Part shown: in pieces, positions 41,361 through 47,313 of the stretch
Position numbering within the stretch: position 1 is the first letter of the stretch
Layout of the letters: each line of letters opens with the position of its first letter
DNA from: a virus
Taxonomy: Duplodnaviria; Caudoviricetes
DNA length: 62,025 bases
Direction: 5' to 3' (one strand)
Virus record (IMG/VR): IMGVR_UViG_3300000101_000014
Coordinates: 1 to 62,025 of that record
Notes under the pieces: generated by a model
Database searches by the model: none
What the model was told of the DNA's origin: nothing
Seen by the model: only the letters and a program-made list of their open reading frames with translations
Position numbers and translations under genes: made by a program

Positions 41361-41597
41361 TTATTCATCCTCATCACCTTTTGCGTCCCAAAAGGATTTA
41401 CTTAATTCACCTTTGCTTGTATCACCAGTTTCACCAACTCTACGAACTTTAACATACATTAGGTGAACACCGCCACTGGCTGAGGTAAATGTTCTAATTC
41501 CAGATGCCGTTGTTCCGTTTGCAGCAATGCAATCTGCTGCCGTGGCTGCATTATCATATTCCCAATCGGGGTTATTTGGAATTGCTACCCATGCCAT
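41361..41597 (-). CDS. Hypothetical protein
   Basis: ORF track; TAATG overlap. Confidence 0.6.
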   Translation of the reverse strand: MAWVAIPNNPDWEYDNAATAADCIAANGTTASGIRTFTSASGGVHLMYVKVRRVGETGDTSKGELSKSFWDAKGDEDE

Positions 41598-43339
41598 TAC
41601 TTTTGACTTCCTTTAATATCTTCGTTCGTCTTAGGTTGAGTCTTACGAGCGATCGCATTGGCACGTGCAATACGAGCGCGATCAAGGATACGATCGTGTT
41701 TCTTTGCATCCGTATCCTTCTCACGTGCGATCCTTTCACGTGCGCGATCAAGAGCATCTTCCTTGATCATTTGTTCCGCCATGGACGCAACTTTACCTAA
41801 CTCACGTGCATCAAAACCTGTGATGCCATATTTCCTCATGACCTGTTGTGCATGGTATGCTGCGCCATGTCTACCAGTCTTGTCCTTCTCCATCTCTTTC
41901 CGTACAAACTTTGCAATTTCTTTGTACTTTTTGGACTTGATTGTCTTCGCCAACCAGTGTTTGATCATTGATGGGGTAGACATTTCGTTGAGATCCTCGT
42001 ATGATTCAGGTAGGGTCGATTCATACTTTAACTCGGGATCAGGAGATTTGAATGCTTTCTTACGCATTATTGTTTTGTTAACAACTTCGAACTCACCGTT
42101 CTTCCAGTTGATCACTACAGGTAGGTTAAGGTCAGACTGCATGTCCTTGAGGATCGCTTCTTTGTTCGCGTTCTTCTTGATCTTTCTACCTTTGTTGTCT
42201 GCCATCTTCTTGAACAGACGTTGTAACTCTGCAACGGTGATTGCGGGTTTGTTTCTCTTATCATTCATACGATCTTTGAAGTGTCGAGTGAACTCGATAT
42301 CTACATCGAACTTATTGAGTAGACGATCTGCAAACTTCTCTAGATCGTTTAGTTCCTTCTGAGACACGTCTTCTTTGACTCCACGTCTCTTACGTAGTAG
42401 ATCTTGTGCACGGTTAATGCCAGGCGTCATCTTAACTGCCTTCTTAACTGCGGCGGGAGTACCTTCTTCGGGTTGTCTCTTGGTAGTTACCAATACACCC
42501 TTCTTGACAATCGGTGACTCTTCTACTAGTTCTACGTTCTCGATCCACTGACGGGATACACTACCCTCATCTAATGCAACGATAACATAGTTGGTACCTA
42601 GACGATGGATCTGTCCAGACTTACCACCTTTGATCTTTACGTTGTCACCCTCTACGAACAACTCACCCTCGATGTACTTCTCACGTGCCTCTGATACGGG
42701 TTCTAGACTTAATCTGTTCTTGAACTCTTTAGTCTCTTTGAGACCCATACCAGTACGCACATCATTGAACAACCTCTTTGCGTCACGGTTGGACATCGAT
42801 GTTGGTACACCCTGAGAGAACAACGTGAAGTCATTCTCTTTGGCATTCGCTCTCTGTTTGGAGGCAGACATACCTGTCAAACCTTCCGCATCAGGATCAC
42901 GATCACCAGACGAGATAATAGTAATCTTCTCGAAGTTATAGAATCCGTGACGACCCTTGACGTTGTTGTACTTCTTTAGGAGAGTTTCGAACTCTGTGAG
43001 ACGGTCTGCACCAACGACCATATTGATTTTGTTGAATCCTTCATTGTGCAACTTGACTGCAACATCAAAGACGGTACGAGAACCTTTGTCTGATATGATG
43101 CTCCGTGCATGTTTTGGAAACATTTTACGTACATGTTTAATCTTCTGGTCATAACTCAAAGGATTCTTTCTTGCATCCTGAGTCTGTGACAGGTAGATTT
43201 TGTAAGGGGATTTTCCTGACTTCGCGGACATGGTGTTCATTAACTTACCATGACCTGTCGTAGGAGGGTTCATTCGGCCATAAGTGAAGAATACTTCTCT
43301 TTCTTCTTCGACCAAATATTGTTTAAATGAGGGTAACAT
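41597..43339 (-). CDS. Cytidylyltransferase/NMNAT-like nucleotidyltransferase with appended modules
   Basis: GRMNPPTTGH (HIGH-like), KNPL, VVGADR, RDPD, MSASKQR. Confidence 0.82.
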   Translation of the reverse strand: MLPSFKQYLVEEEREVFFTYGRMNPPTTGHGKLMNTMSAKSGKSPYKIYLSQTQDARKNPLSYDQKIKHVRKMFPKHARSIISDKGSRTVFDVAVKLHNEGFNKINMVVGADRLTEFETLLKKYNNVKGRHGFYNFEKITIISSGDRDPDAEGLTGMSASKQRANAKENDFTLFSQGVPTSMSNRDAKRLFNDVRTGMGLKETKEFKNRLSLEPVSEAREKYIEGELFVEGDNVKIKGGKSGQIHRLGTNYVIVALDEGSVSRQWIENVELVEESPIVKKGVLVTTKRQPEEGTPAAVKKAVKMTPGINRAQDLLRKRRGVKEDVSQKELNDLEKFADRLLNKFDVDIEFTRHFKDRMNDKRNKPAITVAELQRLFKKMADNKGRKIKKNANKEAILKDMQSDLNLPVVINWKNGEFEVVNKTIMRKKAFKSPDPELKYESTLPESYEDLNEMSTPSMIKHWLAKTIKSKKYKEIAKFVRKEMEKDKTGRHGAAYHAQQVMRKYGITGFDARELGKVASMAEQMIKEDALDRARERIAREKDTDAKKHDRILDRARIARANAIARKTQPKTNEDIKGSQK

Positions 43340-43913: not shown

Positions 43914-45293
43914 TCAATACAACTTTGCGAATGGGCCAAACAAATCTCCTTTTTTCTGTGCGAGATACCCCAAATCGGTTAGTGCATTGTTCATCTGATT
44001 CTGGTTTGTTATTGAAAATATTTCATTCAGTATATCGATCTGCATCAACTTACTTAACGCAACATCTGCTTTCCCCTTATCAAACACGATAGTCATATTA
44101 GCAACGAACTGATCTACAGTGTTAATCTCAAAGTCAACCTTTCTGGTGGCTTGGAGTTTTTTGAATCGTTGGGTATGCGTATCGATGTCATCCAGAAACT
44201 CTTGAGTGGTGGTTGGATAGTTTCTCCAACGTCTCCATCTCTGACTCTCCAGTCCTTGTCTCTGAAACAATGCGGATGCCATATCTAGTGGAACCTTACC
44301 GAGTCGTGCCGACTGTGCACTGATATCAGTTCCTTCTATCTTGAGGTTTGCCTTACCCGCTTCGTTTTGTCGGATCTGGAACTTGATCTCTTGTTTGGAG
44401 GATCCAATGAACACCAGAGAATCTGTTTTACGGAAGTTGTTTCCTTGGAGATTGAGGGTACAGTCTGCCTTTTGGAACCGGAAGAGATACTCGTCACCGT
44501 CAAACACATCCTGAGAGTCTAGGTTTACTAGTTCCCACTTCGCTTCCTTTCCGGACATCAACTTTAGGGAGATACCAACCACCTGTCTGCGTTTAAACAT
44601 CGCACGGAGGATTGTATTGAACTCCTGTAAGGATGTGCTGTTGTCTCGGATCTTAGAGTCTAATTCTCTCTTGACCCTTTCTAGATCAGACACTAACCAT
44701 ACGTCCGCAGGGTTCCATGTGTCCTTCTTGGAGATCTTATACAACTTCTGACAGGTCTCAGTGATGTAATCCATGAACCCACCGTCACGTGAGTAGTGAC
44801 TGTATGACGTTTGTCCCACCTCACGATAAGTTGTCAATTGTTGTTGAAAGATTGTATCTTCCCAAGTCTCGTTCATCTCAGGATAGATCTCTAGTAGTTG
44901 ATCGCGGTACAACTGGTAGAATTGTTTCTGGTTTTGGTAACCGTTGTTCTCAATACTCTTTTGTATTGCAAACAAAGATGCGTTCTCTTGCATCGCAGTG
45001 GTCTTTGCATTAGAACCACCACCACCGGTGAATTGACTCTTCTCTATCTCAGACCATTTGTAACCATTGAACAACGGTACAAACTGTGCGGATACTTTCA
45101 GAGTGGTTCCTATGGTTCCCTCATTCTTTTGTTTAACTGCTTGTAGAAACTCCTTGACAGTAGGAGACTCCACGATCACTTGATTCGATCGATCGGTCAT
45201 TAGGAGTGGTTTTCCATTTGCAATAATATCCGCAACCTTACCGATGTAAGGTTTCTCGAACGTTATATATTTTCCACCAGCTAGTCCAGCCAT
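43914..45293 (-). CDS. Putative PD-(D/E)xK endonuclease
   Basis: TAMQE, DTWNPADVW, VGISLK. Confidence 0.6.
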   Translation of the reverse strand: MAGLAGGKYITFEKPYIGKVADIIANGKPLLMTDRSNQVIVESPTVKEFLQAVKQKNEGTIGTTLKVSAQFVPLFNGYKWSEIEKSQFTGGGGSNAKTTAMQENASLFAIQKSIENNGYQNQKQFYQLYRDQLLEIYPEMNETWEDTIFQQQLTTYREVGQTSYSHYSRDGGFMDYITETCQKLYKISKKDTWNPADVWLVSDLERVKRELDSKIRDNSTSLQEFNTILRAMFKRRQVVGISLKLMSGKEAKWELVNLDSQDVFDGDEYLFRFQKADCTLNLQGNNFRKTDSLVFIGSSKQEIKFQIRQNEAGKANLKIEGTDISAQSARLGKVPLDMASALFQRQGLESQRWRRWRNYPTTTQEFLDDIDTHTQRFKKLQATRKVDFEINTVDQFVANMTIVFDKGKADVALSKLMQIDILNEIFSITNQNQMNNALTDLGYLAQKKGDLFGPFAKLY

Positions 45294-45317
45294 GCGTATT
45301 CCCTCTTTGGTAGTTAC

Positions 45318-45358
45318 TATTTATAAGGAATTGTACGCAAAAAAAAGGACGCTGTCAA
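45318..45358 (-). promoter_or_regulatory. Tandem sigma70 and late promoters
   Basis: TTGACA(45358-45353)-N17-TACAAT(45335-45330) and TATAAATA(45325-45318). Confidence 0.65.
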
Positions 45359-45364
45359 GCGTCC
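45339..45364 (-). terminator. Rho-independent terminator
   Basis: GGACGC-TTGACA-GCGTCC followed by T8. Confidence 0.85.
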
Positions 45365-45376
45365 GAAGAGAGAGAA

Positions 45377-45446
45377 TGGAGCGGAGAGTAGGAGTTTCAC
45401 CTACCTTCTTTGGGGGGAACCCATAGACCCAATAACTGGCCTCCGC
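45377..45446 (-). tRNA. Non-canonical tRNA-Gly(UCC)-like RNA
   Basis: 7-bp acceptor GCGGAGG/TCTCCGC, U discriminator, encoded CCA, T-arm GTAGG-TGAAACT-CCTAC, anticodon loop GTTCCCC, truncated D-arm. Confidence 0.65.
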
Positions 45447-45447
45447 A

Positions 45448-45981
45448 TTATTTGGTGGTTAACAATGTAACAAAGTTGGCATAGTCGTCACGTGCTTGAT
45501 CAGTACACAGATCATTCCAGACGTAACTTGCGTCCATAACTTCTAACAACTGTATCGCTTCAACCTTCCATGTTGACCAGAAATCCTTATCGTGTTCTCT
45601 GATACTAGGTGCGTTGTGCATCAAGTCACAGATCTTAACCATACGTAGTTCAGGGGGTGCAGAAGCCAACCTCGCACGATCCAATTCTTTACGTTTAGCG
45701 CGGTTACCGACAAACTCAGGAGGTTTAGTCAGGTACCATACGTACTCTGCAACCTTATCACCAAACTTTTGTTGGATCTCTTCTTGAGTAACATCGGTGT
45801 CTTCTACAGTGTCATGAAGATAGGCAGAGAACACCAAGTCAGGGGTGGGTTCCTTCATTGAAATGAAAACGTTTTCTGCAACTGCGAAACAATGTTCGAC
45901 ATAAGGTTCACCAGTGTACTTTCGCACTTGTCCTTCATGTGCATGAATGGTGAACATCTTAATCTCTTCTAAACTAACCAT
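45448..45981 (-). CDS. HD-domain (p)ppGpp hydrolase-like protein (Mesh1/SAH type)
   Basis: AHEGQVRKYTGEPYVEH, AYLHDTVEDT, VKICDLMHN. Confidence 0.85.
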   Translation of the reverse strand: MVSLEEIKMFTIHAHEGQVRKYTGEPYVEHCFAVAENVFISMKEPTPDLVFSAYLHDTVEDTDVTQEEIQQKFGDKVAEYVWYLTKPPEFVGNRAKRKELDRARLASAPPELRMVKICDLMHNAPSIREHDKDFWSTWKVEAIQLLEVMDASYVWNDLCTDQARDDYANFVTLLTTK

Positions 45982-46348
45982 AGATACTCCGTGAAAATAA
46001 CACCTGACCGTTTTCGTAACCTCGAACCGGTCGTCCGTTTTGGGTAATCACCGCAGTGAGATCCCGATTACTATTAACATTATAATCTAATTCGTAGTCC
46101 ATGGCAACAGCTGCCGCCTTATAATTGTTAAAGTTTTTAACATGAACAACACCATCGGAACGTTGGAAGTGCAACTGAAATCGTTTCAACTCCTCTTCCT
46201 CAGTTGCATACTGGTAGTAGTCAGTCGCGAGTTCAGAACAGAGATCGAGGGTGACACGTTTGACACGTCTCTCCCCAGTCTCGTCAAGGATATACCGGCG
46301 AACTTCTGCCGGTATTTGGTCGTAGGAGTTGTAAGTAACTTCTTCCAT
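45974..46348 (-). CDS. Hypothetical protein
   Basis: ORF track, start MEEVTY with GGAGG SD. Confidence 0.6.
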   Translation of the reverse strand: MEEVTYNSYDQIPAEVRRYILDETGERRVKRVTLDLCSELATDYYQYATEEEELKRFQLHFQRSDGVVHVKNFNNYKAAAVAMDYELDYNVNSNRDLTAVITQNGRPVRGYENGQVLFSRSIYG

Positions 46349-47313
46349 TATGCTACCTCCGCCATTTCTAGTGCGAGGTTCATCGCCTTGAGTTTCTTCG
46401 CTTGGTTTGAACCGAACCATGCAGACTGCATACGAGTGTCGTTTGAACGTCCCAACTCGTGGTCAGTCATGTAAGTTACAGCGTTCACTGCGTTCCACCA
46501 TGAACCCATCGCCATCTCTGCGCCAGGTTGTGTCTCCAGTACATCGAACGTACGTTGTGCAGAACGAGACAGGTCAATGTAATCCATAACCGACTTCTCT
46601 TTCGCAGGGAAGATTGCGTTGAAGTACTGAATCAGATCTTCTGCCTTAGTCTTCTTCTTTGCGAGGAATCGTGCAGCTTCTTTGTACTGGTCAAACTTCT
46701 CGTGGGCGATACCCAACTGATCTTTGACCAACTGTGGATCAAACGCACGGCGGTGGTTAAGTGCAACTTCGTTCTTTGCGTTCGCACTAAGTGACATAGT
46801 CAAAGTGTTGTTACACACTACACGGATCGGAGTGAACCGTACGTTGATTGACTTACCGTACTGGTGAGGGTTAGAGAACAGAAGGTAGGAATCTACCTGA
46901 TCTTCACCCAACACGTTGAACGACTCGTTAACCTTCGCAAGTGCCCATACCATCTGACCACCCTTCAAAGAACCCGCAGTGTGCATTTCCATGTCACCTG
47001 CAAGGCAGTACTCGTTGAAGAACTCAAACGCTTCGTGGTTCTGGACTGGATTCCAACCCTCACCCACAGACGGGGCAAGAACCTTGTTGTCAGTCGAACG
47101 AATCAACGCAGAAGTACCGGTGGCGATCAGATCGTCATCAGCAGGAGCTGCGTATGTTGGAACCTTTTTGACTTCCCAGTCACAACCTGCCTTCTCCATC
47201 ATTTGACGGGGAGACAGATCAGCAGGAACACGTTCACCTAGACCATGCCAAGGCACCTCACCAACGTATGCCATTTGCGCTTGACCGTTTACCATTTCAA
47301 TTTCATGACTCAT
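46348..47313 (-). CDS. DUF932 / LGT_TIGR03299-family protein
   Basis: PWHGLG, PVQN.EAFEFF, TAGSLKGG, TPIRVVCNNTL. Confidence 0.88.
   Translation of the reverse strand: MSHEIEMVNGQAQMAYVGEVPWHGLGERVPADLSPRQMMEKAGCDWEVKKVPTYAAPADDDLIATGTSALIRSTDNKVLAPSVGEGWNPVQNHEAFEFFNEYCLAGDMEMHTAGSLKGGQMVWALAKVNESFNVLGEDQVDSYLLFSNPHQYGKSINVRFTPIRVVCNNTLTMSLSANAKNEVALNHRRAFDPQLVKDQLGIAHEKFDQYKEAARFLAKKKTKAEDLIQYFNAIFPAKEKSVMDYIDLSRSAQRTFDVLETQPGAEMAMGSWWNAVNAVTYMTDHELGRSNDTRMQSAWFGSNQAKKLKAMNLALEMAEVA

Follow-up and report, generated by a model that had tools for sequence, protein, structure and literature searches.

In this study we analysed a 62,025-nt stretch of virus DNA (Duplodnaviria; Caudoviricetes; positions 1 to 62,025 of the IMG/VR record IMGVR_UViG_3300000101_000014), the whole of which is called the window here, and found that a 70-nt element on its minus strand (45377..45446) is very probably the gene for a small structured RNA that descended from tRNA-Gly(UCC), has no D arm, and lies at the 3' end of an operon made up of a DUF932 gene, an open reading frame (ORF) of 148 aa and a small alarmone hydrolase (SAH) gene. 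The initial annotation of this DNA had reported a tRNA-like RNA that starts 1 nt after the stop codon of the hydrolase gene and is followed by a terminator, and the sequence confirms this arrangement: on the minus strand a single T at 45447 separates the TAA stop codon (45450-45448) from the element (45446-45377), and the terminator comes next. The origin from tRNA-Gly(UCC) is the point that was missing from that annotation. The element belongs to a family that is a conserved tRNA-like RNA missing from Rfam and unseen by tRNA finders. A full-text literature search, the scope of which did not extend to supplementary files, returned no paper on a D-arm-less tRNA-like RNA in a phage and none in which a phage SAH gene is fused to a tRNA-like element.

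The minimum free energy (MFE) fold of the window element is a cloverleaf-like three-way junction. Its acceptor stem has 7 bp, formed by the 5' strand GCGGAGG (45440-45446, minus strand) and TCTCCGC at 45381-45387, and the seventh pair is G-T in the window and A-T in the relatives L012 and L088. The 3' strand is followed by a discriminator T and an encoded CCA (45377-45387 in all), and 12 of 12 members end in the same CTCCGCTCCA; in acceptor, discriminator and 3' CCA the element therefore agrees with a canonical tRNA. Where a canonical tRNA has a D arm with a stem of 3-4 bp and a GG loop, the element has a 12-nt stretch (45428-45439), in which the MFE fold places only a 3-bp CCA/TGG hairpin, and the relatives have 10-11 unpaired bases. 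The anticodon-like hairpin (45407-45427), which is defined by fold, invariance and covariation, consists of 3 bp, an A-A mismatch, 4 bp and the 5-nt loop TTCCC (45415-45419). The loop is closed by an invariant G-C pair where a canonical anticodon loop has 7 nt, and opening this pair places C at position 37. The T arm (45388-45404; GTAGG-TGAAACT-CCTAC) has a 5-bp stem and a 7-nt loop, which is non-canonical, as the conserved TTCRANN type of T loop is missing from the whole family. Judged by folds and pair counts, this is the build of a D-arm-less tRNA, with a loop in place of the D arm and the other three arms (acceptor, anticodon and T) kept.

ARAGORN made no tRNA call at the element in seven settings, including relaxed and metazoan-mitochondrial ones (-mt, -mtx), and Rfam gave no tRNA match there at E<=10 or at the gathering score (RF00005 had 0 matches in the record). 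The tRNA-like domain of a tmRNA was considered and rejected, as the tmRNA mode of ARAGORN was negative and the element is merely 70 nt long. The MFE z-scores are weak (-1.7 to -2.2). The pattern of a 7-bp acceptor, a T arm of 5 bp with a 7-nt loop, and NCCA is found a single time in the window, namely here, compared with a mean of 0.06 in 100 Markov-shuffled windows, six of which had at least one match; without the CCA requirement, the shape is ordinary (7 observed vs. 5.1 expected). The single copy is thus only suggestive, and the homologues settle that the element is real.

Protein alignment yielded 80 SAH loci on viral contigs and another 80 on metagenome contigs, and a pattern scan of these 160 loci (713,576 bases) found 20 copies of one 66-70-nt family at the SAH 3' end; the remaining matches were ARAGORN tRNAs, plus one unrelated match. 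A covariance model of the family (R1), built from 12 distinct sequences, finds the window element as its only match in the window (70.8 bits, E 1.3e-14), and a search of 100 sources with this model yielded 24 intact copies with scores of 70.8-94.4 bits, many of which stem from contigs that occur in two collections. The distinct intact sequences number 13 and come from related marine phage contigs. All members share the same fold, which comprises a 7-bp acceptor, 10-12 unpaired bases in place of the D arm, a hairpin of 7-8 bp whose loop has 5 nt, a linker of one or two bases, a T arm of 5-6 bp, and NCCA. Acceptor pairs 1-6, the discriminator T, the CCA, and the TTCCC loop with its closing G-C are fixed in 12 of 12 aligned members; when all 13 intact sequences are considered, pairs 1-3, the T discriminator, the CCA and the G-C-closed TTCCC loop are common to every one of them and pairs 1-6 to 12. 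The element is unchanged in L087 and L006 and differs by one base in L012 and L088. The T loops vary and none is canonical (TGAAACT, TGCAATG, GTAGGTG, GTTGGTG, GTGAGTG, GGCGGTT). One further copy, at L089:3036-3074, is broken by N and its middle part is missing, which may be an assembly gap or masking.

The paired positions change in a coordinated manner. Hairpin stem pairs covary (G-C/A-T and G-C/G-T/A-T), with the third hairpin pair being G-C in 3 members and A-T in 9, and the second T-stem pair is seen as T-A, G-C, C-G and G-T. In a MAFFT alignment of 12 distinct rows, 98.2% of 228 cells are paired and 4 of 19 pairs have changed on both sides; the count of both-side changes is not decisive, since 84 of 500 shuffles reach it (slid partners give 1 at most), whereas the covariation score of 0.226 is reached by 0 of 500 shuffles and compares with <=0.080 when partners are slid. 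In a model-fitted alignment of 18 distinct rows, which takes in two canonical tRNA-Gly sequences and is biased towards the model, 97.8% of cells are paired and 12 of 19 pairs have changed on both sides, a number that none of 500 shuffles reaches and for which slid partners give at most 4; its covariation score is 0.364. The earlier description of the RNA as tRNA-like thus finds its support in a conserved, covarying family among the relatives. Beyond these relatives, a blastn search with 45300-46000 gave no match among isolated phages. Exact-pattern scans of viral contigs with the T arm and with the window-type core found only two close relatives, and the terminator pattern added only the L007 contig. 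A scan with the family pattern through one genome each of 185,579 prokaryote species gave 26 matches, all of <=17.3 bits, which is about what chance would give by a rough estimate.

The descent from tRNA-Gly(UCC) is seen most directly in the relative L007, which is the same contig as L090 and to which L091 is alike. Its SAH is 68% identical to that of the window, and its gene order is as in the window, namely a 224-aa ORF, a 95-aa ORF, DUF932, the 148-aa ORF, SAH, terminator and the 459-aa ORF. At the site of the element, 36 nt after the SAH stop codon and ahead of the same terminator, stands a 72-nt tRNA-Gly(TCC) that is called by ARAGORN and scores 45.1 bits with Rfam. This tRNA-Gly has oddities of its own: a 3-bp D stem, a D loop without GG, and an anticodon loop (TGTCCAA) that shrinks to 5 nt on folding; its T loop, read in L090, is TTCGAAA. 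L007 and L091 also keep a degenerate family copy that overlaps the SAH end (30.3 bits), in which the acceptor helix and T arm are present and the hairpin, the T discriminator and the CCA are missing. The bacterial glycine identity set, given as G1-C72, C2-G71, U73, C35 and C36 in excerpts of PMC9976931, is fully present and invariant in 12 of 12 family members, which may on this basis be charged with glycine.

The identity set and the invariant central TCC also fit a genuine reduced decoding tRNA-Gly(UCC), in which the G-C pair would open to a 7-nt loop with U33 and the anticodon UCC, and which would be glycylated and read GGA and GGG for the phage, after the manner of mitochondrial tRNAs that lack the D arm. 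The G and C on either side of the loop are constant whereas the stem pairs further out covary, as is expected of loop positions, the element occupies the site of the ARAGORN-called tRNA-Gly(TCC) of L007, it lies next to a tRNA-like sequence in RNA-library contigs, and the tandem copies at L008 (3014-3112 and 3117-3186) resemble tRNA arrays. Even so, we regard a decoding tRNA as unlikely. It is called neither by ARAGORN (bacterial, relaxed or mitochondrial) nor by the Rfam tRNA model, the loop is closed to 5 nt in every MFE fold, and opening it would give C at position 37 and a G-C pair at 32-38. Decoding tRNAs have U33 and a purine at position 37, and C37 and G-C at 32-38 are very rare in them. 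Codon usage makes no strong case for such a tRNA either, as GGA and GGG together make up only 30% of the Gly codons in 72 window ORFs and GGT 62%. Four features thus make normal decoding unlikely: a loop of 5 nt (or of 7 nt with C37 and G32-C38), the missing D arm, the variable T loops that never show the canonical sequence, and one copy, the first of the two at L008, in which the TTCCC loop is replaced by an insert of ~31 nt.

The gene that precedes the element (45448..45981, minus strand) encodes 177 aa and is, by its matches in Pfam, PHROGs, NCBIfam and the PDB, a small alarmone hydrolase with one RelA/SpoT-type HD domain, for which (p)ppGpp, (p)ppApp or tRNA 3'-pyrophosphate are candidate substrates. 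Its score with Pfam HD_4 (PF13328) is 44.3 bits against a gathering cut-off of 27.2, which places it in the RSH superfamily; it matches phrog_990 at 1e-35 and TIGR00691 in part, as well as the solved chains of MESH1, a small alarmone hydrolase and Rel/SpoT hydrolases in the PDB. The motif residues H30, H56-D57, E60-D61, D119 and N123 are invariant across 34 homologues and align with the hydrolase motifs of Lmo0812 and Rel. The protein is a single domain with no synthetase domain, all matches falling within residues 4-141, and over residues 1-149 it shares 37.4% identity with the product of the sole matching gene of Salmonella phage SSU5. With these matches and the SSU5 homologue, the earlier call of a Mesh1/SAH-like hydrolase stands.

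The linkage of the element to this gene was counted in 122 SAH loci, duplicates removed, each with 120 nt or more of downstream sequence. In 14 of them the element begins inside the SAH gene, 24 nt ahead of where its stop codon ends, and the overlapping 5' strand GCG GAG TTG ATA GAC GGA CTG TGA then encodes the SAH C-terminus AELIDGL and the stop. In two loci, those of the window type, it starts 1 nt after the stop codon, and the 5' acceptor strand is non-coding yet still GCGGAG. In L094 (1/122) it lies 736 nt downstream, behind an inserted 244-aa ORF and with a 5' remnant left at the SAH end, and one locus has the L007-type tRNA-Gly at the site. In all 11 SAH-linked loci examined, the element is found directly before an intrinsic terminator. 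A quick maximum-likelihood tree of 109 distinct SAH proteins placed all 18 element-bearing ones in a single clade of 20 (SH-aLRT 98), the other two members being L007 and L010, the latter having lost the element. Because the element-bearing SAHs form one clade, the linkage arose once; it is old (SAH identity down to 53-57%) and stable.

Such a tight arrangement would also suit a cis-acting element in the 3' untranslated region (UTR) of the SAH operon, which would set the mRNA 3' end by RNase P cleavage or exonuclease protection, or couple SAH translation to folding. The last seven SAH codons and the stop lie inside the element in most relatives (the 24-nt overlap in 14/122 loci), the element starts 1 nt after the stop in 2/122 and stands right before the terminator in 11 of 11 loci, the copies of L094 and L171 lie 6-7 nt behind the stop codon of the ORF that precedes them, and an RNA-library contig (X18), which spans 45364-45646, runs unbroken over the SAH 3' end and the element. 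We nevertheless consider a purely cis role improbable, as a hairpin for processing or stability needs neither invariant glycine identity positions nor a TTCCC loop, and tandem copies (L008) and unrelated contexts (L171 and the RNA contigs with other flanks) are found. Cleavage by RNase P at the 5' end would moreover strip the SAH stop codon in the overlapping layout, which looks costly.

Other RNA features were seen around SAH genes. In other SAH clades, canonical tRNAs begin within 0-130 nt of the SAH stop codon, such as a tRNA-Pro at +5 (L085:2507-2583), a tRNA-Tyr right after the stop codon (L134), and a tRNA-Arg at about +125 from the stop codon (L026:3111-3187 and L037:3144-3220), and a same-strand tRNA lies downstream within the locus in 19 of the 122 SAH loci. 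One viral contig has an SAH homologue with a tmRNA-like gene of the permuted type, as reported by ARAGORN, upstream of it (L082:1746-2110). A conserved stretch of ~50 nt with hairpin potential lies between element and terminator in L098, L146, L094, L008 and L106; in L106 it contains an insert whose core resembles the insert of the first L008 element, and this may be a small mobile hairpin.

The family also has members that lie apart from the gene order seen in the window. When viral contigs were scanned with the family pattern, six matched, and in five of these an SAH gene adjoins. In L094 the 244-aa ORF (617-1351; no Pfam or NCBIfam match) is followed by a complete element copy (1357-1422), which looks like an insertion event at a tRNA-like site. 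A copy identical to that of L094 is present on L171 (3164-3229, minus strand; a 7.4-kb contig), between a sliding-clamp-like gene with a 65-aa ORF and a clamp-loader-like gene, in a T4-like replication module; the copies of L094 and L171 both follow closely on an ORF, as noted above. The second copy at L008 is divergent and keeps the TTCCC loop, the T discriminator and the CCA. RNA-library contigs from two metatranscriptomic libraries (X16, depth 12.5, and X17) match the window only at 45377-45447, with four differences, two of which are recorded at hairpin positions 37 and 38, one making the A-A mismatch an A-T pair; on the 3' side they continue with what looks like the beginning of a further tRNA.

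Insertions of this kind raise the question of whether the element is a recombination or insertion target, that is, an att-like tRNA-derived site, or a decaying tRNA pseudogene that has no function of its own. The gene content 3' of element and terminator differs between relatives, L094 has its 244-aa ORF between a 5' remnant and a complete copy, L008 and L106 have similar short inserts in hairpin loops, and L007 has its degenerate copy. Against this stand the compensatory changes, the 98% pairing in 13 distinct intact sequences, and the invariant loop and acceptor, which together argue for selection on the RNA itself. No integrase was seen in the loci examined, the genomes are of the T4-like lytic type (UvsX, helicase, polymerase, clamp), and no bacterial attB partner was found with the family pattern in the 185,579 species genomes. 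We therefore hold this explanation to be very improbable, and it comes last in our ranking, after an RNA acting in trans, a reduced decoding tRNA and a cis-acting 3'-UTR element.

The reading we place first, as the leading candidate rather than a probable one, is that the element acts in trans as a surrogate of tRNA-Gly in the same conflict as the SAH. A trans-acting RNA is preferred over a purely cis 3'-UTR element because some copies stand in tandem, others occur with no SAH nearby, and one context resembles a tRNA array. Cleavage by RNase P and trimming at the 3' end would yield a CCA-ended RNA of 66-70 nt, which glycyl-tRNA synthetase (GlyRS) or other readers of tRNA-Gly would recognise and might glycylate; such recognition would fit the finding that precisely the glycine identity set is invariant. 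The RNA could then be an extra or sacrificial substrate, possibly bound by toxins, of host factors by which the acceptor end of tRNA is attacked or sensed, and the co-transcribed SAH may cooperate with it by removing 3'-pyrophosphate marks and/or degrading alarmones. Researchers have found that the toxSAS enzyme FaRel2 picks tRNA-Gly and tRNA-Thr via G1-C72, C2-G71, G4-C69 and Pu5-Py68, and that the PaSpo SAH of Salmonella phage SSU5 removes the toxSAS mark from tRNA (excerpts of PMC11559606); the determinants of the GNAT toxin TacT are U73 and G71 (cited in excerpts of PMC9976931). The window element carries all the FaRel2 determinants and those of TacT. A more specific version, which we consider doubtful, is that of a dedicated non-decoding 'mini tRNA-Gly' that serves as a sacrificial or competing substrate for immunity directed at tRNA 3' ends, with the SAH regenerating both this RNA and host tRNAs. 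Only the acceptor helix, U73, the CCA and a UCC loop for GlyRS would have been kept in such an RNA, and the candidate attackers would be toxSAS pyrophosphorylation, tail-cleaving nucleases and acetylation of Gly-tRNA.

Several points weigh against a trans-acting partner of the SAH. The match to the FaRel2 and TacT determinants is shared by any descendant of tRNA-Gly, FaRel2 comes from a Firmicute and not from a marine host, and the FaRel2 determinant G4-C69 is not universal in the family, as the second L008 copy has A4-T69 instead. In L007 a near-canonical tRNA-Gly takes the place of the element, which is just as compatible with the usual work of a tRNA. The TTCCC loop, being invariant, points to charging or to recognition related to the anticodon rather than to an acceptor-end decoy alone, and the proposal of the initial annotation that the RNA soaks up toxins or RelA is not supported in its pure form, since an acceptor-end or RelA sponge leaves this loop unexplained. 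A check named in that annotation was whether tRNA-like elements co-occur with phage SAH genes. Within one clade they do so, in a linkage that is tight and old and even overlaps the end of the ORF, but this does not extend further: 104 of the 122 related SAH loci have no element, and the single origin of the linkage with one loss (L010) gives no independent replication. In six isolated phages of other lineages with an SAH (Rhizobium B1VFA, Escherichia PJ16, Stenotrophomonas DLP_6, Salmonella SSU5, Acidovorax ACP17 and Vibrio pVa-21), 0 of 6 had a tRNA or a family match within 1.5 kb of the SAH gene. Copies away from the SAH exist as well, as the L171 contig has no detectable SAH and the flanks of the X16 and X17 contigs are unlike the window. 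The RNA-library contigs are assemblies that are silent on RNA ends, processing and level, and DNA carry-over is possible in them. Finally, element, spacer and terminator are identical at 108 of 108 positions between the window and L087, compared with 93.8% for the SAH gene, 82.5% for the region of the 148-aa ORF and 86.4% for the 459-aa ORF, and this identity is supportive rather than decisive because identity along these phages is mosaic and recombination may account for part of it.

The element is followed on the minus strand by a 12-nt spacer and an intrinsic terminator (45339..45376), which consists of a 7-bp stem at 45364-45347 and then eight T. This stretch is identical at 38 of 38 positions in L087, L012 and L088 and at 36 of 38 in L090. 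A sigma-70-like promoter pattern on the same strand (45330-45358; TTGACA, a 17-nt spacer and TACAAT; 11 of 12 matches) overlaps the terminator hairpin, and a TATAAATA box (45318..45325, minus strand), which we take to be the T4 late-promoter consensus, lies upstream of the 459-aa ORF at 43914-45293. The TATAAATA box is also found 3' of the terminator in relatives, where the promoter-in-terminator layout recurs, and the strong conservation of the terminator may be due to the overlapping promoter and the box that follows. The operon order is DUF932, 148-aa ORF and SAH, then the element and the terminator, and the order of the three genes is kept far outside the element-bearing clade. The DUF932/TIGR03299 protein that flanks the operon is encoded at 46348-47313 (minus strand). 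The 148-aa ORF had zero matches in Pfam, PHROGs and NCBIfam, and the ESM Atlas gave no lead for either this neighbour or the 459-aa one. An Rfam STAXI match within the 459-aa ORF (44921-45079, minus strand) was rejected as probably due to chance, with 24 bits against a gathering score of 40.5. The source phage is a marine T4-like one, its proteins in the window including a UvsX-like recombinase, a DnaB-like helicase, a DNA polymerase and a ribonucleotide reductase; the 62-kb record has a completeness estimate of 37%. One neighbouring gene product has 32-36% identity to hypothetical proteins of marine cyanomyoviruses, and a 580-aa protein encoded at 41597-43339 (minus strand) has a cytidylyltransferase-like N-terminal domain.

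If the 'mini tRNA-Gly' and the SAH do act together, they would form a counter-defence pair of an RNA and an enzyme, and the RNA would be the first functional D-arm-less tRNA-like RNA in a bacterial system. If it is charged or recognised as tRNA-Gly, it would be a natural minimal tRNA for probing what GlyRS, RNase P, EF-Tu and tRNA-targeting toxins need, as the glycine identity positions are precisely what it retains, the D arm and the canonical loops having been lost. The long-standing fusion to an SAH gene offers a concrete and cheap way into the idea that phage SAHs act on tRNA ends, beyond alarmones. This family also means that current annotation under-counts phage tRNA-like genes, and that an RNA gene can overlap protein-coding sequence, with its 5' strand encoding the last seven residues of the SAH.

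Some tRNAs and tRNA-like RNAs of other systems share part of this architecture. Mitochondrial tRNAs that lack the D arm include mammalian mt-tRNA-Ser(AGY) and the 'armless' tRNAs of nematodes and mites, which have a 7-nt anticodon loop and are served by co-evolved mitochondrial factors. The element is like them in its single-stranded D replacement of 10-12 nt, its extended anticodon stem and its non-canonical T loop, whereas its own loop has 5 nt (or 7 nt with a G-C pair), its host is a bacterium, and ARAGORN makes no mitochondrial call. The tRNA-like structures (TLS) of plant viruses and modules of the mascRNA type are tRNA-like 3' structures on longer transcripts. The element resembles these in having a CCA-ended tRNA-like fold at a transcript 3' end, which makes it a plausible substrate of RNase P, CCA-adding enzyme and a synthetase; in contrast to these, it comes from a DNA phage of bacteria, its acceptor is an ordinary helix and not a pseudoknot, and tandem and mRNA-free copies occur.

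The closest protein systems are the PaSpo SAH of SSU5 and phage SAHs in general. The SSU5 and window proteins, with 37.4% identity, are both single-domain RSH hydrolases, the activity of the window enzyme being a predicted one, whereas the SSU5 gene has no tRNA or family element within 1.5 kb. With the tRNA-Gly targets of FaRel2 and TacT, the element shares the determinants, as would any tRNA-Gly, and the marine host is not known to have such a toxin. Phage tRNAs are known, including ones that escape tRNA-targeting defences (excerpts of PMC10264068 and PMC11555353). Compared with phage tRNAs in general, the element is without a D arm, has a 5-nt loop and variable T loops, is undetected by ARAGORN and Rfam, and overlaps a protein gene in most members. 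With phage tRNAs, among them the tRNA-Gly(UCC) of T4-like phages and those that escape tRNA-targeting defences, it has in common that it is encoded by a T4-like phage, the descent from tRNA-Gly(UCC), a loop region of non-canonical form, the acceptor stem, the T arm, the discriminator and the CCA.

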